Shown here in pieces: positions 6,405 to 64,000 of a stretch of DNA of 64,000 nt. The DNA comes from Dehalococcoidia bacterium (GTDB taxonomy: Bacteria; Chloroflexota; Dehalococcoidia; Lucifugimonadales; Australimonadaceae): contig OZ252088.1 in NCBI GenBank assembly GCA_965248065.1, forward strand, positions 1,740,773-1,804,772, given 5' to 3'. Numbering within the stretch: position 1 is the first letter of the stretch; the number at the start of each line of letters is the position of its first letter. The notes under the pieces are model-generated. The model was given only the letters and a program-made list of their open reading frames with translations, did no database searches and was not told the DNA's origin. A program made the position numbers and the translations under genes.

Positions 6405-7529
6405 ATGACCCAGCTCACCCCCAAGCCCGAGGTAAGGCAGGACCAGGAGCGCGTTTCCAAGGTCAGCGCCTATCAGACGTTCATCGACGGCGAGGGCGTT
6501 CCCAACATTACCGGCTTCGCGGTCGACGACGTGCGCGCGGTCGGGGTCGAGCCCTGGGCGCGGCTCGATTGCTTGGGCGCGTACATCAACCTCGACGGCA
6601 ACGCCGGGACGAACGACTGCTACGTGGCCGAGATTCCCGCGGGCGGGAAGATGGCGCCGGAGAAGCACTTGTTCGAGGAGAACATCTACGTGCTGCGGGG
6701 CAGGGGAGCGACGCTCGTGGGCGACGACCCGAACAGCCGGACCTCGTTCGAGTGGAAGGAAGGCAGCGTCTTCTCGATTCCCCTCAACGTTTGGCATCAG
6801 CACCTGAACGGCTCCGGCTCCGAGTCTGCGCGGTTCTTGGCCGTCACGACGCTGCCGCTGGTCCTCAATTTCTTTCACAACCAGGACTTCATCTTCAGCA
6901 ATCCCTTCGTATTCGAGGACCGCATGGGCGACTCGCGGCAGTTCCAGGGCGAGGGGTCCATGTACACGGGCGGCTCCGGCCGGGTGAACGTGTGGGAGAC
7001 GAACTTCATTCCGGATATCGACTCCTTCACCACGTTCAGCTGGAAGGAGCGCGGCGCCGGCGGGTCGAGCGTGATGTTCGAACTGGCGGGCAACACCCAA
7101 GCCGCCCACGTTTCCCAGTTCCCGGTCGGCACCTACAAGAAGGCGCACCGCCACGGTCCCGGCGCCCACGTCGTCATCGTCTCCGGCGACGGCTACAGCC
7201 TCCTCTGGCCGCCGGAGGGCAGCGTGCCGGACGACGTCATCCGCGTCGATTGGAAGCGCGGCGGCCTCATCGTGCCTCCCAACAACTGGTTCCATCAGCA
7301 CTTCAATGGAGGCGCCGCTCCCGCCCGCTACCTCGCCTTCCGCTGGGGGAGCCAGAAGTATGAGTTCGTGTTCGACCCCGGCGAATCGGATCTCAGCGAG
7401 AAGCTGGGCGGCGCGCAGATCGAATACGAGGACGAGGTTCCCTGGGTCCACGACACCTTCGCCGAGACGCTCACCAAGGCGGGCGCCGAGTCCAAGATGG
7501 CCGATTTCATCCCGCGCCTGCGCGGGTAG
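6405..7529 (+). CDS. Bicupin protein (gentisate-dioxygenase-like fold)
   Basis: Two cupin-like halves (..EKHLFEENIYVLRGRG.. and ..HRHGPGAHVVIVSGDG..WFHQHFN). An RBS GAGGGAG precedes the ATG. Confidence 0.65.
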   Translation: MTQLTPKPEVRQDQERVSKVSAYQTFIDGEGVPNITGFAVDDVRAVGVEPWARLDCLGAYINLDGNAGTNDCYVAEIPAGGKMAPEKHLFEENIYVLRGRGATLVGDDPNSRTSFEWKEGSVFSIPLNVWHQHLNGSGSESARFLAVTTLPLVLNFFHNQDFIFSNPFVFEDRMGDSRQFQGEGSMYTGGSGRVNVWETNFIPDIDSFTTFSWKERGAGGSSVMFELAGNTQAAHVSQFPVGTYKKAHRHGPGAHVVIVSGDGYSLLWPPEGSVPDDVIRVDWKRGGLIVPPNNWFHQHFNGGAAPARYLAFRWGSQKYEFVFDPGESDLSEKLGGAQIEYEDEVPWVHDTFAETLTKAGAESKMADFIPRLRG

Positions 7530-17414: not shown

Positions 17415-18380
17415 ATGAACACTCCCCTCTTCTCCATCGGCGGAAGCTCAGGACTCGGCTGGCAGGCATTCCTCGACGTCTGCACGGCCTGTGAGGAGAC
17501 GGGCTACTTCGCCTTCTACCCCTCCGACCACCTCATGACCGTTCAAGGAGGGAAGGGGCCCTCGCCCGACCGTCTCGACGCCCTCACGGCGATGGCCGCG
17601 GTCTCCGGCTACACCAAGACCCTCCGCCTCGGCGTCCTCGTCGCCAACAATCTCTTCCGCCATCCGGTGATGACCGCCAAGATATTCAACACCATCGACC
17701 ACGCCTCGAACGGACGCGCCGAGCTCGGCCTGGGCGCCGGCTGGTCGGAGCCTGAGCATCGCGTACACGGCTTCCCGTTCCCGCCGCCCGCCGAGCGTAT
17801 CGCCATGATGGACGAGGCGCTCTCCGTCGTCCGCGCCATCTGGACCGACGAGCCAGCCACTTTCCACGGCGAGCACTACAGCTTGCACGAGGCCCCGCAG
17901 ATGCCGAAGCCCGTCCAGCAGCCGTATCCGCCCATCATCGTGGGGGGCATCAGCGGCCGGACGATGCGGGTCGCCGTCAAGCACGCGGACGATTGGGACC
18001 AGATAGCGCCCGTCCGCCAAGTCGCCCGCAACATCGAGCGATTTCGGGCGGTCGCCGCCGAGATGGGCCGCGACCTCACGAACATGCGCTTCTCCGTCCA
18101 AGTTCCCTTTGCGTTCGTATCGAGCAGGGCGGAGGCCGAAGCCGTCATAGACAACGCCGTGGCCAGCTTCAACTACGGCGCCCACAACGTTGCCCCCGGC
18201 TACGCCGACCTCCGGGAGCACGTCGCCGACTCACGCCTGCTCGGCTCGCCCGACGAAGTCGTCGAACAGGTGGGGCGGTGGGTCGAGGTGGGTGTCAACC
18301 ACTTCATCCTGACCACGCCGCGCCCCTTCAACCGCGAGCCGTTGGAGACGTTCATGTCCGAAGTGGCCCCCGCGTTTTGA
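17415..18380 (+). CDS. LLM-class (luciferase-like) F420/flavin-dependent oxidoreductase
   Basis: FYPSDHLM, RLGVLVANNLFRHPVMTAK and ELGLGAGW motifs are present. The N-terminal 311 aa of the 632-aa ORF are antisense to the Gfo gene. Confidence 0.8.
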   Translation: MNTPLFSIGGSSGLGWQAFLDVCTACEETGYFAFYPSDHLMTVQGGKGPSPDRLDALTAMAAVSGYTKTLRLGVLVANNLFRHPVMTAKIFNTIDHASNGRAELGLGAGWSEPEHRVHGFPFPPPAERIAMMDEALSVVRAIWTDEPATFHGEHYSLHEAPQMPKPVQQPYPPIIVGGISGRTMRVAVKHADDWDQIAPVRQVARNIERFRAVAAEMGRDLTNMRFSVQVPFAFVSSRAEAEAVIDNAVASFNYGAHNVAPGYADLREHVADSRLLGSPDEVVEQVGRWVEVGVNHFILTTPRPFNREPLETFMSEVAPAF

Positions 18381-18462
18381 GTAAAGACGCCTGACCGCTC
18401 GCATGCCGTGGAGGCAGGATGCCGCCACTTGCGCGTCCGCAGCTATAGTGTATGATAGGTGT

Positions 18463-18672
18463 ATGGCGCGCACCAACATCGACATCGACGATCAGGCGTG
18501 CGCAGAGGTCATGCGGCGCTACCAGCTCGCCACCAAGCGCGAGGCGATCAACTTCGCCCTGCGGACGTTGGCGGCCGAACCCGCGTCTCTCGACGAGGCC
18601 CGCGCCCTCCGGGGGATTGGTTGGGAGGGCGACCTCGACGCTCTGCGCTCCGGCCGTTCGTCATGGTCCTGA
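18463..18672 (+). CDS. vapB: Type II antitoxin VapB (MARTNIDIDD type)
   Basis: MARTNIDIDDQACAEVMRRYQLATKREAINFALR is the classic VapB N-terminus. Confidence 0.85.
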   Translation: MARTNIDIDDQACAEVMRRYQLATKREAINFALRTLAAEPASLDEARALRGIGWEGDLDALRSGRSSWS

Positions 18673-19070
18673 TTGACACCTCGGCGTGGATAGAATTCCT
18701 CCGGAACACGGGTTCCATGGTTTGCGAGGCGGTTGACGAGTTGCTGGCGCACGAGGTCGCCACCTGCGATGCAGTGAGGATGGAAGTGCTCGCCGGGGCG
18801 CGGGACGAGTCGCACTTGCTGGGCCTTCGGCGACTTCTTGCGCGGGCTGCGGTGATCCCGACGCGGGCGACGGACTATGACGATGCCGCCGCACTCTATC
18901 GCCGTTGCCGGCGGCAGGGGGAGACAGTCCGAAAGCTGATTGACTGTCTCATCGCCTCCATAGCCGTACGCGCCGGCATCCCGGTCTTGCATAGCGACGC
19001 CGACTTCGAAGTGCTCGCTCGCCACACGGAGCTTGAGGTCTATACGCCCGAACGCGCACGAGGAAGCTGA
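18663..19070 (+). CDS. vapC: Type II toxin VapC (PIN domain)
   Basis: MVLIDTSAWIEFLR..C..E..D acidic pattern of a PIN domain. It overlaps the vapB 3' end by 10 nt. Confidence 0.85.
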   Translation: MVLIDTSAWIEFLRNTGSMVCEAVDELLAHEVATCDAVRMEVLAGARDESHLLGLRRLLARAAVIPTRATDYDDAAALYRRCRRQGETVRKLIDCLIASIAVRAGIPVLHSDADFEVLARHTELEVYTPERARGS

Positions 19071-19107
19071 GGCGGCTGTCTGCTTCAGAAATAAGAAAGC
19101 CTCCTAT

Positions 19108-19146
19108 CCGTCATCCCGCGCAGGCGGAACCTCGTAGCGGCGCGAC
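19108..19146 (-). repeat. M1-variant hairpin repeat (GTCATCCCGCGCAGGCGGAACCTCGYAGCGGCGCG)
   Basis: Near-identical to 21246-21284. It is inverted relative to the M1 copies at 1696 and 52870. Confidence 0.8.
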
Positions 19147-19211
19147 AGCTGCGAAGCGCGGGGGAGGAGAGCGGCGGCGCGCAGGCTTCCCCCTCCATCA
19201 AAGGGGGCGCT

Positions 19212-19261
19212 GCGACATTTGCCCCTTCCGCCAACGCTATCTCTCCTCCTACACTGACTCC
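19212..19261 (+). repeat. C-rich box M3 (GCGACAYYTGCCCCTTCCCCCA..CTACCATG), degenerate copy
   Basis: The sequence is GCGACATTTGCCCCTTCCGCCAACGC... The family has five copies: 19212, 21308, 32975, 51271 (inverted) and 60434. Confidence 0.7.
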
Positions 19262-19303
19262 CGATATCTACACCCCCGAGACCGGAAGCTCCTCTCCCCC
19301 CTC

Positions 19304-19449
19304 CTACGAGTGAAATGAGACTAAATGAGACCAAATGAGACCTTTTTTCAGCAGCCGCTTTCCCCTCACTCGTAAACCTCCCCCATTTGCGAGTGACGCC
19401 AACGCGCCATTTCACCCTCGAAGCGGAAGCGCCGGCGCCTCATTTGCGT
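19304..19449 (+). repeat. Structured element M4, copy A (word AAATGAGAC x3); candidate ncRNA
   Basis: CTACGAGTGAAA, then three AAATGAGAC words at 10-nt spacing, then CTTTTTTCA. Hairpin 19367-19376/19386-19395 contains one T-G pair. Complements to the word region lie at 19408-19415 and 19439-19445. Confidence 0.6.
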
Positions 19450-19664
19450 CCAGCTGCGCCGTCGACGCGTCGCGTCTATCCCCGACGCGTCTCCAGACCT
19501 CTCCGCAATGCTCCCGGATGGCAGTGCAGTGCGGCGTAGCGGTGGCGAGTCCATTGAGGGGCCTACCGCGCCCTCGCAATCGCCCTAGGGACGGGCGACG
19601 CGCTATCATCCTCTGCGGCGCCACATACTCAGGAAGGCGCTCCATAGACATCAGGAGGCTACCC

Positions 19665-20624
19665 GTGGGCAAGGTGCTATTCAGCGTTGGCGGGAGTTCA
19701 GGGCTCGGCTGGGATGACTTTCTGGAGATATGCCAGACCTGCGATGAGCTCGGCTTCCACGGCTTCTACCCGTCGGACCATCTCATGCAGATCAATCCGG
19801 GCCGGGGCGCGACGCCCACGCGGCTCGAAGGGCTCACGGTCATGGCGGCGATGGCCGGCCACACCAAGCGCCTCCGTCTCGGGATGCTCGTCATCAACAA
19901 CAACCTCCGCCACCCCGTTATGACCGCCAAGATCGTCAACACGATCGACCACGCCTCGGGCGGCCGCGCCGAGATGGGCATCGGCTCGGGCAACGTCAAG
20001 CACGAGTTCGACGTCCACGGGATGCCGTTCCCGCCCTTCGCTGAGCGCGCCGAGCGGCTGGACGAGGCGCTCTCCGTCATCAAGGCCATCTGGCAGGACG
20101 AGCCCGCCAGCTTCCAGGGCAAGTACTACAGCCTGGACGAGGCCCCCCAGATGCCCAAGCCCGTCCAGCAGCCGCACCCGCCCATCATCGTCGGCGGACG
20201 CGGCGATAGGACCCTCCGAATCGCCGCCAAGCACGCCGACGACTACAACCAGATCGCGCCGCTGGAGGAGGCGAAGGTCAACCTCGCCCGTATGCAGGCC
20301 GTGTGCGATGAGACCGAACGCGACTTCTCAGCCATGCGCCACTCGGTCCAGATTCAGATCAAGCTGACCGACGATAAGTCGGCGATAGAGGCAACCGTCG
20401 CGCGGGGCGCGAGCCTGGCCACCCAGCGCACCGACTACTACGCGAGCCCCGAGGACCAAGTGCGCGACAGCATGTTCCTGGGGTCGTCATCGGAGGTCGC
20501 CGAGCAGGTCGGCCGGTGGATCGAGGCCGGGGTGGACCACTTCATCCTGATGACGCCGCGCCCGTTCGACCGGGGGATGATGGAGCGCTTCGCCCAAGAG
20601 GTGGCGCCTCAGTTCGCAGGGTAG
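19665..20624 (+). CDS. LLM-class F420/flavin-dependent oxidoreductase (paralogue of 17415-18380)
   Basis: Collinear motifs FYPSDHLM, RLGMLVINNNLRHPVMTAK and EMGIGSG. GTG start at 19665 follows an AGGAGG. Confidence 0.8.
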   Translation: MGKVLFSVGGSSGLGWDDFLEICQTCDELGFHGFYPSDHLMQINPGRGATPTRLEGLTVMAAMAGHTKRLRLGMLVINNNLRHPVMTAKIVNTIDHASGGRAEMGIGSGNVKHEFDVHGMPFPPFAERAERLDEALSVIKAIWQDEPASFQGKYYSLDEAPQMPKPVQQPHPPIIVGGRGDRTLRIAAKHADDYNQIAPLEEAKVNLARMQAVCDETERDFSAMRHSVQIQIKLTDDKSAIEATVARGASLATQRTDYYASPEDQVRDSMFLGSSSEVAEQVGRWIEAGVDHFILMTPRPFDRGMMERFAQEVAPQFAG

Positions 20625-21098: not shown

Positions 21099-21245
21099 CG
21101 CAGACCTCTTGGGTGGTCCGGCAGGCTGACCACGAGCCTATCTGATGGGCTCGTTCGATGAGCTCGCCGCGAACCGATTTGCAGAATCAGCCCCGAGTCG
21201 TGGGGGTTCCCCGAGTATAAACGACGCGCCCGGACTAGGAGGGGG

Positions 21246-21284
21246 CCGTCATTTCCGCGAAGGCGGAACCTCGCAGCGGCGCGG
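21246..21284 (-). repeat. M1-variant hairpin repeat
   Basis: The sequence is CCGTCATTTCCGCGAAGGCGGAACCTCGCAGCGGCGCGG. Confidence 0.8.
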
Positions 21285-21307
21285 TCCTTCCCCTCCCCAC
21301 CCAATCA

Positions 21308-21353
21308 CGACACTTGCCCCTTCCCCCAACGCCCCTATCCCTCTACCATGACC
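21308..21353 (+). repeat. C-rich box M3
   Basis: The sequence is CGACACTTGCCCCTTCCCCCAACGCCCCTATCCCTCTACCATGACC. The complement carries four G-runs. Confidence 0.8.
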
Positions 21354-21420
21354 GCCCCCGACCCTGTACGAGGACACCCCGGCTCCGCTGCGCAACCGCG
21401 CCCCGCGCCGCCGCTCCGGC

Positions 21421-21521
21421 CTCACGAGTAAAATTGCGCACTTTTGCGCGCCTTTGCGCACTTTTCACCCCTCCCACTCGTAAACCTGCGCATTTTACGA
21501 GTGAGGAGCAGCGCAAAAGGC
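21421..21521 (+). repeat. Structured element M4, copy B (word TTGCGCRC x3); candidate ncRNA
   Basis: CTCACGAGTAAAA, then three TTGCGCRC-type words, then CTTTTCA. A perfect 10-bp hairpin lies at 21475-21484/21494-21503. GCGCAAAAG (21511-21519) is complementary to CTTTTGCGC (21441-21449). Confidence 0.6.
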
Positions 21522-21673
21522 AGGCGTTTTCGGCCCCGTTGTGAGTAATGACGGAGGGGGCGCGGAACGACGGAGGGCACGGCTCACTACCTCTGCGAGG
21601 GGCCTATTTTCGAAGCAATCTCTCATGTGGGCCTGTCGGCCCACGTCACAACCGACGAAAATGGGGGTGGAGC

Positions 21674-21710
21674 GGCCCCCTCTCTAACTCCCCTCCGTCT
21701 GCGGGGGAGA
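21674..21710 (+). repeat. M2 repeat
   Basis: The sequence is GGCCCCCTCTCTAACTCCCCTCCGTCTGCGGGGGAGA. Confidence 0.8.
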
Positions 21711-21751
21711 AGATTATTGGGGGAATGACGGAAGGAGTCCGAGGTGACGGT

Positions 21752-22309
21752 GTGAAGAAGAGCGGGTCGCAAGGCCGGCGGTCGACCCTGGTTCGAGCCG
21801 CGTTGCTGGCGGCGCTCGCGCTCGTAGCGGGCGCCGCTCCGGCGTACGCCCACGGACAGCACGAGCTCGAGGTCGAGCTGTTCAGGGGCGCGAAGGGGCC
21901 CTATGAGCTCTGGGTCACCGCCGTGCCCCTGGTCGGCTTCCTGGAAGTCGCGGTGACGTTCGAGCCGGATGCTCCGGACGCTGAGCTCGGCTACAGCCCG
22001 CGCGTCGTGGTGTCGGCGACGAGGGACGGCGTGCGGCTCGGCCCTAAGACCGCAACCCGCGCCTTTCTCGTCACGGCCAATGACTACTCGGCCACCTTCG
22101 ACCCCGGCGGCGAGGGACAATGGGAGATCGTGATCAACATCGATTCCGAGCGCGGCCCCGAGACGCTCACGCTGCCGGTGACCGTAACCCAGGGGAGGGG
22201 CTTCCCCTGGACGGCGCTGATCGCCGGGCTGGGACTGGTCCTGCCTATCGTCTGGCTGGCGTGGGGGGCCGTCCGGCGCAAGGGCCGCGCCAAGCGGCGG
22301 AGAACATGA
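21752..22309 (+). CDS. Secreted protein with C-terminal membrane anchor (predicted mature N-terminal His)
   Basis: Signal peptide ..LVAGAAPAYA followed by HGQHE, plus a C-terminal TM and basic tail. GTG at 21752 was chosen because the upstream ATG lies inside repeat DNA. Confidence 0.55.
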   Translation: MKKSGSQGRRSTLVRAALLAALALVAGAAPAYAHGQHELEVELFRGAKGPYELWVTAVPLVGFLEVAVTFEPDAPDAELGYSPRVVVSATRDGVRLGPKTATRAFLVTANDYSATFDPGGEGQWEIVINIDSERGPETLTLPVTVTQGRGFPWTALIAGLGLVLPIVWLAWGAVRRKGRAKRRRT

Positions 22310-32867: not shown

Positions 32868-33290
32868 GGGCTCCCCCCTGCCTCTGCAAGAGGGGCCGCG
32901 CCCGGCTCTCCTCTCGCGGACGGGAGGGAGTTTATCGTCCTCTCCTCCGCCTGCGGGGGAGACTGAGAGGGGCCGCGACATCTGCCCCTTCCCCCATCCC
33001 CCACCAACCCCTACCATGGACTCCGACAGACTACGCGCTGTCCCCTTCCGTTCCCCTCCTTGCCAAGGAGGGGCTAGGGGTGGTCCCACAGGGGGTCCGG
33101 CGCCCCCCACCAGCCCCGGAAATCCGGGGGGTCGAATTTCTTGAATTCTTGCATTCTTAACCCCCTTCCACCGCACCACGGCCTGGTAAACAGGATCAGA
33201 AAGTTCCGGGGAAAATAAGTTCTTGCCCCCCACTCCGCCGCCCGGCGACCGCGCCACGGCCACGTAAAGGCGGCTCCGAGTCGGCGTTGG
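32868..33290 (+). repeat. Composite repeat block R1 (M2-like hairpins + M3 + M5)
   Basis: M3 lies at 32975-33028 and M5 at 33124-33268. The block is an inverted counterpart of 50803-51325. Confidence 0.8.
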
Positions 33291-44689: not shown

Positions 44690-45834
44690 CTCGGGAAGCC
44701 GTAGAGCGCGACGCAGTTGTCATGCACGATCTTCCGCATGTCCTCCTGCGCCTCGGGACCGGCGAAATCGCGCTCGATGAACTCGCGGGACTTCGGCCAC
44801 GTCGACGCGGCGTGGGGGTAGTCCGACGACCACATCACCCGGTCTACGCCGATGTCTCCCCGGTACTGGATTCCCACCTCGTCGTCGATGTAGGTGACGT
44901 ACACCTGGCGGGCGAAGTACTCCGTCGGCTTCATGCTGAGGGGCGTCGAGAAGCCGCCGCGCCTGCTCGACCCGCGCCCCACTGTGCTGTTCACCCGGCC
45001 GAGCCAGAAGGGGACCCAGCCGACGCCGTACTCCGCGGAGATTACGTTGAGGGTGGGGAACCGCTCCAGCACCCCGGAGGCGATGATGACCGCGAGCGAT
45101 TTCTGCACCTCGTGCGCCGCGATGATCGGCCGCAGGACGCGGTTCTCCCGCCCAAACTCGTACTTTGGCCGCTCCATGCCCGTCGGGGGATGGAGGCTGA
45201 GGGGCATCCCCAACTCCTCCGCCCGGCTCCAAAAGACATCGTACATGTCCAGGTGGTACGGCTGGTCCTCGGGCGGGGAGGCCCAGATCATGGCGCCGCT
45301 GAGTCCCATCTTGGCGCAGCGTTCGAGCTCCTCGGCGCCGAGCTTCGGGTCGTACAGCGACACCAGCGCCAGCCCCTTCAGCCGGTCCGGCGCGTAGCTG
45401 CAGTATTCAGCCAGCCAATCGTTGTACACGCGGAAGCACTCGCGTTGCAGGGCCGGGTCTTGCAGCCAGAAGAGCCGGAAGCCAAGGGTCGTATAGAGGA
45501 CCTCGGCGGCCACGCCGTCGACGGCCATATCCTTCAATCGCTCCACCGGGTCCCACCCGCCTGGCCGGGCGTCGGCGTACCCGCCGGTCTTCATGAACTC
45601 GACCTTCTCGTCCTCGGTGCGGCTCTGGCCCGCCGCCACCCCGACGGCGAGATCGTGGGGCTGGTAGCCCTCGTAGACCCACCACGCCCCCGGAACTCCG
45701 TTGTACTCGTCCTCCACATGCGGCGCGCGGTCCCGGAACTGCGCGTCCATCCGCGTTGTCCACAGGTCCAACGGCTCACTCATGTGAGAGTCCGACGATA
45801 TGTACCAAGCATTCGCCGTCGGGGCATTCGCCAT
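44674..45834 (-). CDS. Amidohydrolase-2 (ACMSD/decarboxylase-like) family protein
   Basis: [10 protein letters not shown] metal-binding start and ..MWSSDYPH end motif are present. ATG at 45834 follows a GGGAGGA RBS. Confidence 0.75.
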
Positions 45835-45983
45835 CGGTTTCCTCCCATGCGTCAGTGCGCCCAACTATCCTCTCAGCCGCCCACGCCGTCAATCTCCCGC
45901 AAGCCGGTCATGCGGGCGCCTGGGCGCATCCCACTTCCGAACGCTACAATGTGTTGCGCCTGCTAGAAACCCCGAGCATCGCT

Positions 45984-47657
45984 ATGAGCAACGAGCCGCA
46001 GCCTGTCGAGCAGACGGCCCCCGCCCAGGACCGTGTGCTCGCGTTGGGCATGGACCGGCGGCGGTTCATGGTGAAGGCCGCCGCCCTTGGGCTGACCGCG
46101 ACCGCCATGCCCGCCTTCCTCGCCGCCTGCGCGCAGCTCGACGCGACTGCAACCGCTTCAACCCCCACGCCCGCGAGCACTCCCTTCCCCACGCCAACCC
46201 CGTTCCGTGAGGCAGCCGTTACGCCCTCCCCGACGCCCACGGCGACGCCGGTTTCGCCGACGCCGACCGCCATGTCTGCGCCTACGGCAACGCCGGCGCC
46301 CACGGCAACGCCAACCCCCACGCCCGCGCCCACGGCAACGCCGACGCCTACGGCAACGCCGACCCCCACGCCGACGCCTACTCCAACGCCGCTCCCACCC
46401 TTGCTGGCCGGCGAGGACGCCCGCGTTAGCCACTTGCTATGGCGCGCCGGGTTCGGCGCGTCGCAGGCGGAGCTGGCCCGCTTCCGCGGCATGGGACTGC
46501 AGGCGACGATCGATCACCTCGTCGATTTCGAGTCCGTCGACGACGAGCCGCTGGAAGCCCGCCTGGCCGAGCAGAATCTCGATTTGGAGGGCAAGCTCAA
46601 TCACCTCCAGCGCTGGTGGCTCCAGCGCATGGCGTATACAGAGCGGCCTTTGCAAGAGAAGATCACTCTCTTCTGGCACGGCATCTTGACCAGCTCCTTC
46701 AAGAAGACCGGCGACGGACCGCAGATGCTGCAGCAGAACCAGCTCTTCCGTACGCAGGGCATGGGCCGGTACAGCGACATGCTGAAGGCCGTCTCACGCG
46801 ACCCTGCGATGATGATCTATCTCGACAGCCGCTCCAATAAGAAGGCGGCCCCCAACGAGAACTACTCCCGCGAGCTCATGGAGCTCTTCAGCCTCGGCAT
46901 CGGGCCCTACTCCGAGGACGACGTCCGCGAGTCGGCGAGGGCCTTCACCGGCTGGCAGCTGAAGCGCAAGACCGAGTTCTTCTTCAACGAGCGCCAGCAC
47001 GACTTCGGCGATAAGACCTTCCTTGGGCAGACCGGCGATTTCGACGGCGACGACATCGTCGACATCATCATGGCCAAGCCCGCCGCCGCCGAGTACGTCT
47101 GCACGCGGCTATGGCGGTTCTTCGCATACGACGACCCCGAGCCCGCCGTCATCGCGCGCCTCAGCGCGATCTTCAAGTCCGACGATTTCTACTCCGACCG
47201 CGCCGCCGCCGCATTGGTGAAAGCGCCTGTCGAACTCGCCGCGGGCGCGGTGCGGTCCCTCGAGGTCAGCACCGACTTCGTCCCGCTCGACCCTATCATC
47301 GAGAAAATGGGCCAGGCGCTCTTCGTTCCGCCCAACGTGGCGGGCTGGCCGGGCGGCGTTACGTGGATAAACAGCTCAACCCTCCTCCAACGCGTGAACA
47401 TGGCCAACGCTATCGCGACCGCCCGCCGCGGCCGCATGCGGTTCGATCCCAAACGGCTCGTGGAGGAGCACGCCGCCGCCGGGTCCGAGGGCATCGTCAC
47501 CTTCTTCGGCGACCTGCTGCTCGGCCCCCGGCTGCGCCGGACCGAGCGCCAGCTCCTCGTCTCCTTCCTCGAGGGTCTGGACGACTCATCACTCAACGAG
47601 AAGCTGCGCAGCGTCGCCTTTCTGATGCTCGCGTCGCCGGACTTCCAGCTGGCATGA
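45984..47657 (+). CDS. DUF1800 domain protein with Tat signal and Thr/Pro-rich linker
   Basis: [14 protein letters not shown] is a twin-arginine signal. A long [10 protein letters not shown] linker follows, and [23 protein letters not shown] is DUF1800-like. Confidence 0.75.
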
Positions 47658-52732: not shown

Positions 52733-52869
52733 GAGAGCCTCCTCAAAGAGCGCTCTCGTCGCGGGTGAGCGCGCGTCGATTCTAGGCGCGGTCAGCGACC
52801 GCTACAAGCTCGCCGCGGACTGCCCCTTCTCTCTAGCAACGATGAAAGTGGCGGGTGGGGCGCCGATAC

Positions 52870-52903
52870 CTGGATTCCCGCCTGCGCGGGAATGACGGAA
52901 GGG
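52870..52903 (+). repeat. M1 hairpin repeat
   Basis: The sequence is CTGGATTCCCGCCTGCGCGGGAATGACGGAAGGG. Confidence 0.85.
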
Positions 52904-56338: not shown

Positions 56339-56346
56339 AGGGGCGA

Positions 56347-56373
56347 GGTTCCCGCCTGCGCGGGAATGACGGG
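56347..56373 (+). repeat. M1 hairpin repeat
   Basis: GGTTCCCGCCTGCGCGGGAATGACGGG lies between convergent genes. Confidence 0.85.
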
Positions 56374-56383
56374 ATTGGGGGGG

Positions 56384-60433: not shown

Positions 60434-60480
60434 GCGACATCTGCCCCTTTCCCCAACGTCCTTCCCCGCCTACCATGTCC
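60434..60480 (+). repeat. C-rich box M3
   Basis: The sequence is GCGACATCTGCCCCTTTCCCCAACGTCCTTCCCCGCCTACCATGTCC. Confidence 0.8.
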
Positions 60481-60524
60481 CCCTCGCAGCCCATGCCCGA
60501 TTCCGCGCCGGGCCGCCGTCCCAA

Positions 60525-60627
60525 CTTACGAGTAAATGGCGCTAAATGGCACCAAATGGCACACTTTTCAAGCCTCTCCACTCGTAGACTCGTGCGATGT
60601 GCGAGTGGCTGCTTGCGCCATTTTCGG
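60525..60627 (+). repeat. Structured element M4, copy C (word AAATGGCRC x3); candidate ncRNA
   Basis: CTTACGAGTAAA, then three AAATGGCRC words at 10-nt spacing, then CTTTTCA. Hairpin 60578-60586/60600-60608 contains a T-G pair. GCGCCATTT (60615-60623) is the exact complement of word 1 (60534-60542). Confidence 0.6.
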
Positions 60628-60735
60628 CCCGTTCCGGCCCTTTACGAGCGACAATCGCGTCGGACGGAGCATAAAGCGGGGCCGCAGGAGACGCCGCTTC
60701 GTAGAAATCAGCACTTTGACGTAAGCAGAGGTTGT

Positions 60736-63676: not shown

Positions 63677-64000
63677 ATGACGAAACGTAGTTTGAGTTTG
63701 GCGGCCCTGCTGGCAGGCGTCTTTGCTTTGTTGGCGGCGGCTTGTGGAAGCGATCCGACAGCAACGCCGACACCGCGACCGACGCCTACTCCGGTCCCGA
63801 CAGTGGCGATGGCTGACCCCACGCCGACGCCCGACCCGTTCGAGGCGGAGTGGGAGGCCCTCGTCGCCGCAGCTCGGGAAGAGGGCAAGCTGGACGCGTT
63901 CATCTGCTGTGCTCTCGGACGTGTGTTCGACGACCACATCGACGCGTTCCAGGAGAACTTCGGTGTCGAGATCACCAGCGCAACCGGCTCATCGCGTCAG
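63677..64000 (+). CDS. ABC-type solute-binding lipoprotein (3' end off-window)
   Basis: Lipobox LAAAC, a Pro/Thr linker and an EEGKL.. SBP-like start are present. The frame is open to the window end. This ORF is not in the ORF track because it has no stop. Confidence 0.6.
   Translation, partial: MTKRSLSLAALLAGVFALLAAACGSDPTATPTPRPTPTPVPTVAMADPTPTPDPFEAEWEALVAAAREEGKLDAFICCALGRVFDDHIDAFQENFGVEITSATGSSRQ

Follow-up and report, generated by a model that had tools for sequence, protein, structure and literature searches.

The region from 19304 to 19449 of a 64-kb stretch of Dehalococcoidia DNA carries a short word three times in tandem, a hairpin and two downstream complements of the word, upstream of a gene for a luciferase-like monooxygenase (LLM). 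The whole 64-kb stretch is referred to as the window and supplies the coordinates used throughout, while L-numbers such as L043 label loci from other genomes. The question raised by this locus is what kind of element such an arrangement represents. An earlier note on the region read it as a regulatory RNA transcribed from the + strand. The element, as a repeated and oriented entity, is real; the RNA interpretation is partly supported at best. With somewhat better than even confidence, the region is interpreted here as the central part of a solo copy, devoid of genes, of a dispersed repeat specific to this lineage, which is similar to a miniature inverted-repeat transposable element (MITE) and homologous to the 5' control region of a two-gene cassette. 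Gene-less copies have multiplied like a miniature non-autonomous element, with at least 25 copies of about 87% identity on one chromosome, and copies are present or absent between close relatives. In addition, alignments indicate homology to the head of the cassette and reveal no conserved RNA helix.

According to this interpretation, the repeat unit is composed of a promoter-like box (M3), a leader of about 60–75 nt, a motif that is either Shine-Dalgarno (SD)-like or ACGAGT, three 10-nt words with an ATG in each, a hairpin formed by a palindrome and phased inverted NNNNCATT(T) words. Its 5' half, consisting of box, leader, SD/ACGAGT motif and words, shows homology to the region of the cassette that comprises the 5' control sequences and the start of translation. 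The identity of the words within a copy could be explained by constant homogenisation of a 10-bp tandem repeat through slippage or gene conversion. That the words are partly complementary to those downstream would reflect the common AAATG/CATTT core, to which quasi-palindrome correction may add. The copies in the window most likely have no dedicated function and would at most provide a weak outward promoter or a leader for the downstream gene.

Architecture of copy A

The copy at 19304–19449 and its surroundings are termed copy A (Table 1). Its word, AAATGAGAC, occurs at 19313–19321, 19323–19331 and 19333–19341 with an exact 10-nt period, and all coordinates given in the earlier note proved right. 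Three exact tandem copies of the word are plainly not due to chance. Taken singly, the 9-mer is not enriched, with 6 matches of at most one mismatch in the whole window as compared to 5.2 expected. Both downstream complements, CATTTCAC and CTCATTT, are found where they had been described, the M1 hairpin and the M3 box precede the words in the same order in copies A and B, and the hairpins of these two copies indeed differ, with TTTACGAGTG in copy B and TTTGCGAGTG in copy A. The motif X1 in front of the words takes the position of an AGGAG (Shine-Dalgarno-like) site in other family members.

Each word of copy A contains one ATG, which results in three ATGs in three different frames. The third of these (19335) opens an open reading frame (ORF) of 429 codons that continues in frame into the LLM gene (19335–20624). 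The extra 110 codons in front of the LLM start at about 19665 are element sequence, and the long ORF is almost certainly a gene-calling trap. That the third ATG shares the reading frame of the LLM gene is a mere coincidence.

A dispersed family of gene-less copies

A scan with the hairpin pattern, using one genome per species, yielded 47 loci, 37 of which (38 hairpin matches) are located in OZ244812.1, a 2.93-Mb chromosome of a Dehalococcoidia metagenome-assembled genome (MAG). Three related Dehalococcoidia MAGs contribute three loci (OZ244741.1), two loci (CBDFLP01) and one locus (CBDHDB01). The other four loci belong to unrelated taxa and are evident chance matches, and the same pattern gave just two matches in the JGI metagenomes, both by chance. 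A few further degenerate copies were detected with nhmmer. No description of the element was found in the literature.

The dominant subfamily in OZ244812.1 comprises 25 aligned copies, which share common boundaries over about 300 nt and display a mean identity of 86.7%. In these copies, the M3 box is followed by one or two GAAGCCTGTCCTGAGCCCGTC units, GATTTACGAGT and three times AAATGTCGCA, and then by the hairpin, AAAAACCTCACG and four or five inverted NNNNCATTT words with a period of 10–11 nt. The words of other copies are of the GGCGC, GGCCC, GAGAC, GACGC, GATAC or TTGCGCA type. Inside every copy the words are nearly identical, and they differ between copies. Their number is almost always three, with two words in L047 and in the aligned copies L014, L019 and L045. 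In one whole subfamily, CCAGAGGAG replaces TTTACGAGT. Throughout the 46 aligned copies, the stem of the hairpin is invariant and the loop is variable.

Crude gene calls for 34 copies place 16 of them in divergent, 14 in co-directional and 4 in convergent spacers. Orientation relative to the flanking genes is informative at the co-directional sites only, where nine copies have the same sense as the genes and five the opposite one. The genes downstream of the copies are unrelated to one another. Neighbours of the solo copies include genes for Rieske oxygenases, dienelactone hydrolases and oxidoreductases, and a search for a transposase between the paired copies in L030, L008 and L044 revealed only Rieske oxygenases, hydrolases and oxidoreductases. 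Inspection of the long gene-poor flanks of L004 gave nothing useful.

Presence and absence in close relatives

Syntenic loci, which were reached via homologues of the EVE protein and show about 92–95% DNA identity, lack copy A. The segment 18368–19570, containing VapBC together with copy A, corresponds to 31 nt in L049, L050 and L051, where the LLM genes are about 100 nt apart. In L048, VapB is kept and the element is absent. Copy B is located in a segment (21236–21737) which takes the place of a 519-nt segment that, in L049, carries a gene for a 135-aa protein, so that the 5' part of the window ORF 21548–22309 is without counterpart in those relatives. The 135-aa protein of the close relatives (L049, reverse complement 6566–7084) is a predicted membrane protein, and its gene has a TTGACA-type promoter of its own.

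When compared to L067–L070, copy C is cleanly inserted and adds about 214 nt; these loci encode an identical 79-aa downstream protein but display a 125-nt spacer without copy C. The inserted copy is flanked by GCGACATC and GCGACAATC, and the empty site has a single TTGACAC; the left repeat belongs to the conserved M3 box.

The two LLM genes (17448–18380 and 19665–20624) are paralogues with about 77% DNA identity, which flank a VapB/VapC toxin-antitoxin pair (18403–19070). Because their spacer holds VapBC in the window and a cassette of a helix-turn-helix (HTH) gene and p102 in the distant relative L052, it is a recurrent landing site for small cassettes.

Homology to the head of the HTH-p124 cassette

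In L043, L040/L066, L052 and L055–L065, the element is followed at a distance of 170–250 nt by genes for a putative HTH protein and for a second protein, p124, both in the same orientation as the element. This arrangement of unit and cassette is present in every locus recovered through protein homologues (L055–L066). Two syntenic contexts can be distinguished, in which the unit, the HTH gene and p124 are placed between PAPS reductase plus DUF2061 and Rieske oxygenase plus MFS (major facilitator superfamily) genes (context 1), or between helicase plus kinase and deacetylase genes (context 2). In both contexts the cassette is preceded by the complete unit, with its hairpin region and its inverted words. 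A word-containing segment replaces the hairpin in the cassette-linked units of L055–L065; the units of L043, L040 and L066 keep the canonical hairpin. The words next to the cassette in L043 (OZ244812.1) are the dominant solo word of that genome, and copy B shares 82.5% identity with the element that precedes the L040 HTH cassette.

More distant cassettes reveal which part of the cassette the solo copies correspond to. The LLM1/LLM2 spacer of L052, a more distant relative, contains an M3-like box, GTCTCATT words in inverted orientation (complementary to the copy A word), CAGACC five times and then GATTCACGAGTGGAATG, which leads directly into two small genes. In the diverged cassettes L052, L072 and L075/L076, an M3-like box of the form YGACAY-N6-7-G-TTGCRY-N18-TAYCMTG is situated immediately upstream of the HTH gene. 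This box is followed by a leader of about 75 nt and by an SD-like AAAGGAG or CAGAGGAG, or by TTCACGAGTG. Three (A/C)(A/T)ATG motifs with 10-nt spacing then straddle the HTH start, the called ORF beginning at the second ATG. Using blastn, the M3 boxes of copy B and of the solo copy L030a could be aligned with the HTH-upstream box of L075/L076 at 74–78% identity over about 50 nt, with TTCCCC in place of the TTGCGC of the cassettes. The M3 box of copy A is tied to the HTH-upstream box only via the family alignment. Moreover, the ACGAGT motif of the solos occupies the SD position of the cassettes. The alignment of the M3 boxes in combination with the three ATG motifs indicates that the solos run collinear with the head of the HTH cassette, from its promoter-like box through the leader to the region of the translation start.

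At 1040–1110 of the distant cassette L073, the HTH coding sequence reads ..TTTTCAGAAAACCTCAC.., and in the solos the hairpin parts TTTTCA from (G)AAAAACCTCAC. Comparison with L073 suggests that the hairpin may have been inserted later, between TTTTCA and GAAAACCTCAC, into a sequence that was once coding. A derivation of the hairpin itself from the HTH codons S-P-R-Q..L-P-Y, for which the alignment is only 47–52% identical, was considered and dropped.

The HTH protein has a length of 125–144 aa. It gives sub-threshold Pfam matches only (HTH_Tnp_1_2, PF13022), no above-threshold family in Pfam, NCBIfam, PADLOC or PDB, and a match to PHROG 2538 'terminase small subunit' (3.8e-9). The second protein, p124 (about 100–139 aa), displays a conserved Cys as well as VHG and CxC motifs and has about 65 relatives among 1.84 billion representative proteins, while no family was assigned by Pfam, NCBIfam, PADLOC, a PDB sequence search or phage tblastn. 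AlphaFold models of the HTH protein and p124 were too poor to use, with a predicted local distance difference test (pLDDT) score of 50 and 57, respectively.

The surroundings of the cassette contain further repeats. A third palindrome family, CCTCCTCCCC-N4-GGGGGAGGATTGAGGAGGGGG, brackets the unit-HTH-p124 block in L043 (6340–6380 and 7605–7645) and is found again immediately in front of the unit in the orthologous loci L055–L064. Nearby, L055 and L057 carry inserted transposase genes of the IS481 type.

The constant position of the element directly upstream of the HTH operon in the loci of contexts 1 and 2 would also be expected for an iteron or operator array. The words would then be binding sites of the cassette HTH protein, aligned on one helix face by the 10-bp period, and each HTH variant would have its own word. 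Solo copies would act as dispersed sites tying neighbouring, often catabolic, genes to the HTH regulon, or as cis sites for mobilisation by the HTH protein and p124. The catabolic neighbours of the solos listed above are in line with this, and so is the layout of the context-1 loci, which contain ATGTCGC three times as direct repeats and a fourth time 32 nt further on, at the position of the solos' hairpin loop. An inverted GCGACAT ends 7 nt before a −35-like hexamer, upstream of a second promoter-like box adjoining the HTH gene, giving 6–7 ATGTCGC-type sites as compared to about 1.4 expected. Additional support comes from the word type, which follows the HTH lineage in the three lineages seen (GTCGC with P0121–P0125, TTGCGCA with P0126/L040), from the word common to the L043 cassette and the solos of its genome, and from the B family, which conserves the GC-rich part of the word within a copy and not the A-tract. 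However, at least eight word types exist in one genome, and no more than a single HTH gene was observed beside them. In the diverged loci L052, L072 and L075, moreover, the three words are non-identical and have only (A/C)(A/T)ATG at 10-nt spacing in common. The HTH assignment is based on the sub-threshold Pfam matches and the one PHROG match, the structure models are of no use, and any binding to the words is putative. Altogether, an operator array is regarded as doubtful.

A more far-reaching variant considers the HTH-p124 pair and its upstream unit as an undescribed selfish or regulatory module. Here the words would be specificity iterons read by the HTH protein, and the solos would either be mobilised in trans, with no known transposase fold involved, or have been co-opted as operators over catabolic genes. 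Such a module is considered unlikely.

Folding and complementarity of the words

The reading proposed in the earlier note is that of a cis-regulatory RNA transcribed from the + strand, as a leader or as a small RNA, in which one of the three redundant words pairs with a downstream complement around the hairpin and thereby controls the downstream gene. Possibly, this pairing could alternate with an ACGAGT/ACTCGT pairing. Several features of copy A and of the window copies speak for such a model. Keeping the words fixed and shuffling the downstream 53 nt with dinucleotides preserved, four complements of at least 7 nt were observed as compared to 0.05 expected (p = 0.0004) and two of 8 nt as compared to 0.015 (p = 0.004); the complements are thus commoner than in shuffled controls, the comparison by which the note had proposed to judge its claim. 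Likewise, the predicted RNA fold of 19300–19450 is better than that of shuffled sequences on the + strand (z = −3.7), as compared to z = −1.7 for the minus strand. When folded jointly, the three window copies form the hairpin and, in addition, pair word 2 with the downstream complement in a helix that shows compensatory changes. X1 (TACGAGTG) would be able to pair with the 5' arm of the hairpin, and the homologous region of the intact cassettes corresponds to a transcribed leader and start region in the same orientation.

However, the joint fold of the window copies does not extend to the family. For 46 family copies, RNAalifold keeps only an 8-bp hairpin and no covarying pairs, which argues against a riboswitch- or attenuator-like structure. 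The helix between the word and the first downstream word is only 55–58% paired, which does not exceed shuffle or slide controls (120/500 and 287/500 shuffles). This helix is absent from the dominant subfamily, in which the downstream words (GGCCCATTT and similar) of the 25 copies are not complementary to the upstream word AAATGTCGC. In the non-dominant copies, GCGCCATT is the most frequent first downstream word irrespective of the upstream word. The change between the hairpins of copies A and B had been taken as a sign of a + strand RNA, as it creates a G-U pair on this strand. This argument is void: T.G occurs in 3/46 copies, whereas A.C, the commonest variant, which is a mismatch on the + strand and G.U on the minus strand, occurs in 21/46. 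What holds of the + strand assignment is the sense direction of the homologous unit, whose M3-like box, leader and words run into the HTH gene; a conserved structured RNA is unsupported.

Further observations are difficult to reconcile with an RNA acting on the downstream gene. AGAGGAG replaces X1 in a whole subfamily, the downstream genes are unrelated, and 9/34 copies face a gene end or a gene on the opposite strand. Neither in copy A nor in the head of the L075 cassette did a sigma-70/terminator scanner make a call, and a tRNA scan gave no match. Rfam returned zero matches at gathering score over the whole window, so that membership in an Rfam family was discarded. With an E-value threshold, CRISPR-DR20 was the sole match in 19050–19700; at 17 bits as compared to a gathering score of 42, and located outside the element, it is a chance match. 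Taken together, a regulatory RNA is considered quite unlikely.

Comparison with known repeats

MITEs are non-autonomous derivatives of bacterial mobile elements, for example the Correia/CREE elements of Neisseria. The element resembles them in that it is small (about 200–500 nt), non-coding, intergenic and present in many copies, which vary in presence between close relatives (copy C is absent from L067–L070 and copy A from L048–L051). It is furthermore related to part of a gene-bearing unit and may carry promoter-like sequence. In contrast to these elements, neither terminal inverted repeats (TIRs) nor a clear target-site duplication (TSD) were found, the solo matches only one end of the gene-bearing unit, its 5' control region, and this unit encodes no recognisable transposase, as both the HTH protein and the ~124-aa protein are without above-threshold match in Pfam, NCBIfam, PADLOC or PDB.

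In Streptococcus pneumoniae, BOX elements form modular repeats of the type boxA-boxB(n)-boxC. The element is similarly a modular intergenic mosaic without a transposase of its own, containing an internal module that varies in sequence or number. However, its module is a 10-nt word present three times, which differs in sequence between copies, and a homologue is found at the start of a protein-coding operon.

Iteron-plus-hairpin origins are known from HUH/Rep replicons (the pMV158 double-strand origin, geminiviruses, circoviruses), and parC-type centromeres are situated upstream of operons for small DNA-binding proteins. The element resembles these only superficially. Its tandem direct repeats of about one helical turn differ between relatives and lie next to a conserved hairpin, in the cassette loci upstream of an operon for a small DNA-binding (putative HTH) protein. 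However, the hairpin loop is variable (CTCCCCC, CTGCGCA, CCCTGCA, CCCCTAC and others) and hence provides no nick-site nonamer. No Rep-like, relaxase or ParA/ParM gene was found with the element or its flanks, and the copies are chromosomal and number dozens; an HUH/Rep origin was discarded.

The palindromes termed REP (repetitive extragenic palindromic) are 20–40 bp long, have an unpaired GTAG or CGTC tag at one end and favour convergent and unidirectional spacers downstream of genes (PMC3733652, Di Nocera et al. 2013). As in REPs, bacterial interspersed mosaic elements (BIMEs) and REPINs, the element has a conserved imperfect palindrome of about 30 nt, is intergenic and often part of mosaics, and the adjoining M1 hairpin is CGTC-tagged. 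Its own 29-nt hairpin is without unpaired GTAG/CGTC tag, GTAA/GTAG being inside the stem, lies within a larger unit (about 300 nt) that also contains tandem words, and belongs to an element that favours divergent spacers. In conclusion, the element behaves like a dispersed non-autonomous repeat of the mosaic or MITE-like kind (Correia, BOX, BIME) for which neither TIRs nor a transposase were found.

Evidence against a gene-less repeat

Several observations weigh against the interpretation as a gene-less dispersed repeat. No TIR was detected at the mapped ends of the dominant subfamily, no TSD is clear, and no transposase is recognisable that would explain the spread of the unit. The nearly constant number of words, together with the fact that the words are cleaner in the solos than in the diverged cassettes, hints at selection on the array. 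In addition, divergent, promoter-containing spacers are the favoured location of the copies (16/34). A promoter function of the M3 box is suggested by its position and conservation, but the consensus scanner is silent at this site. A permutation test on 14 diverse copies revealed a weak positive association of the upstream word with the first downstream word (p ~ 0.007) and with any downstream word (0.04), as an RNA helix would predict; this association is partly due to two related copies with a GACGC/GCGTC double change.

Finally, the copies A, B and C of the window are only 44–59% identical to each other and carry three word types. They could therefore be independently decayed cassettes and not products of amplification, each copy being the 5' remnant of an HTH-p124 cassette that had inserted separately and subsequently lost its genes by deletion. 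The close match between copy B and the unit upstream of the intact L040 cassette fits such a history, as does the intact cassette of L052 in the LLM1/LLM2 spacer, which in the window holds VapBC and copy A. Decay, however, does not account for the same right-hand boundary of the solos, just past the inverted words or the motif X3, where HTH coding sequence is never retained, and 25 near-identical solos in one genome favour amplification of a gene-less unit. Moreover, the perfect hairpin is common to the solos but replaced by the word-containing segment in the cassette-linked units of L055–L065. Independent decay of the window copies is considered very unlikely.

The remaining candidates were dismissed: arm-type sites of an integrase, as no integrase is nearby; a phased A-tract bend module, as the A-tract is not the part conserved within copies of the B family; stop codons in three frames, as these are not general across copies; and a terminase small subunit with its pac site, as no terminase or phage genes are present in any cassette locus despite the PHROG 2538 match, PF13022 stays below the Pfam threshold and tblastn against phage genomes gave one weak match (E = 6e-3).

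Further copies and features of the window

Besides copy A, the window contains the copies B and C and, as copy D, an isolated M3 box (Table 1). Copies A, B and C share the order of their parts: the M3 box (GCGACAYYTGCCCCTTYCCCC..TACCAT) is followed by a spacer of about 60 nt, ACGAGT, three tandem 10-nt words, CTTTTCA, the hairpin CACTCGTARAC-N7-WTKTRCGAGTG and a downstream complement of the word. The word itself is AAATGAGAC in copy A, TTTTGCGC in copy B and AAATGGCRC in copy C.

Table 1. Position and composition of the element copies in the window.
Feature	Position	Strand	Composition
Copy A, whole composite	19043..19570	+	M1, spacer, M3, leader, words, hairpin, inverted words, tail
Copy A, M1 hairpin	19108..19131	+	CGTC-tagged REP-like palindrome CCGTCATCCCGCGCAGGCGGAACC
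Copy A, M3 box (P-box)	19212..19256	+	GCGACATTTGCCCCTTCCGCC..N..TACACT; −35 position degenerate
Copy A, X1 motif	19305..19312	+	TACGAGTG; direct copy of the hairpin 3' arm
Copy A, three tandem 10-nt words	19313..19342	+	AAATGAGACT, AAATGAGACC, AAATGAGACC
Copy A, 11-bp hairpin	19366..19396	+	TCACTCGTAAA (19366–19376), 9-nt loop, TTTGCGAGTGA (19386–19396); one T.G pair
Copy A, first downstream inverted word	19404..19415	+	GCGCCATTTCAC, containing CATTTCAC (19408–19415)
Copy A, second complement	19439..19445	+	CTCATTT, with flanks GCCTCATTT; 1 mismatch from the full complement of the word
Copy B	21236..21548	+	M1 21246–21270; M3 21307–21350; CACGAGT 21423–21429; words (TTTGCGC type) 21430–21460; hairpin 21475–21503; GCGCAAAAG 21511–21519; X3 GTTGTGAGTAA ~21538–21548
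Copy C	60434..60656	+	M3 60434–60477; TTACGAGT 60526–60533; words AAATGGCGCT, AAATGGCACC, AAATGGCACA 60534–60563; hairpin 60579–60607; GCGCCATTTT 60615–60624; X3 CTTTACGAGC 60640–60649; GCGACAATC 60648–60656
Copy D	32975..33018	+	M3 box only; then a different module, TTCTTG three times with 8-nt period, ~33127–33155

The module next to copy D (33127–33230) has the form GGGGGG-TCGAATTTCTTGAATTCTTGCATTCTTAA-CCCCC, with the three TTCTTG units within the G/C stem. Beyond it, a mini-hairpin containing GTAAAC and another TTCTTG can be observed, and the site is located between convergent genes. The + strand of all four M3 boxes is extremely C-rich and G-poor. In several family copies, the minus strand of the box displays four G-runs, each with four or more G and separated by short loops, a G-quadruplex-type motif.

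M1 constitutes a separate family of REP-like palindromes, (C)CGTCATTCCCGC..GCGGGAAT, with a CGTC tag. Members in the window are situated at 403–437, 1695–1729, 19108–19131, 21246–21270, 52869–52903 and 56343–56377, and the palindrome flanks many members of the repeat family on either side. A long imperfect tandem array of CCCACGGCAACGCCGAC-like units with a 12/18-nt period (46159–46398 and 63755–63792) lies inside an ORF (45597–47657) and probably represents a repetitive Pro/Thr/Ala-rich protein segment.

Implications

For annotation, the units are best masked as a lineage-specific repeat family of soil Dehalococcoidia, and neither RNA genes nor N-terminal extensions should be called from them. 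If interpreted correctly, the family provides a traceable case in which the promoter, leader and start region of a gene turned into a proliferating gene-less repeat. It also points to a rare and uncharacterised two-gene cassette, known from about 65 protein clusters, in which start codons in three frames, arranged in tandem every 10 nt, are conserved at the nucleotide level. Should it be true that the cassette proteins bind or move the units, this would constitute a new mobile or regulatory mechanism.

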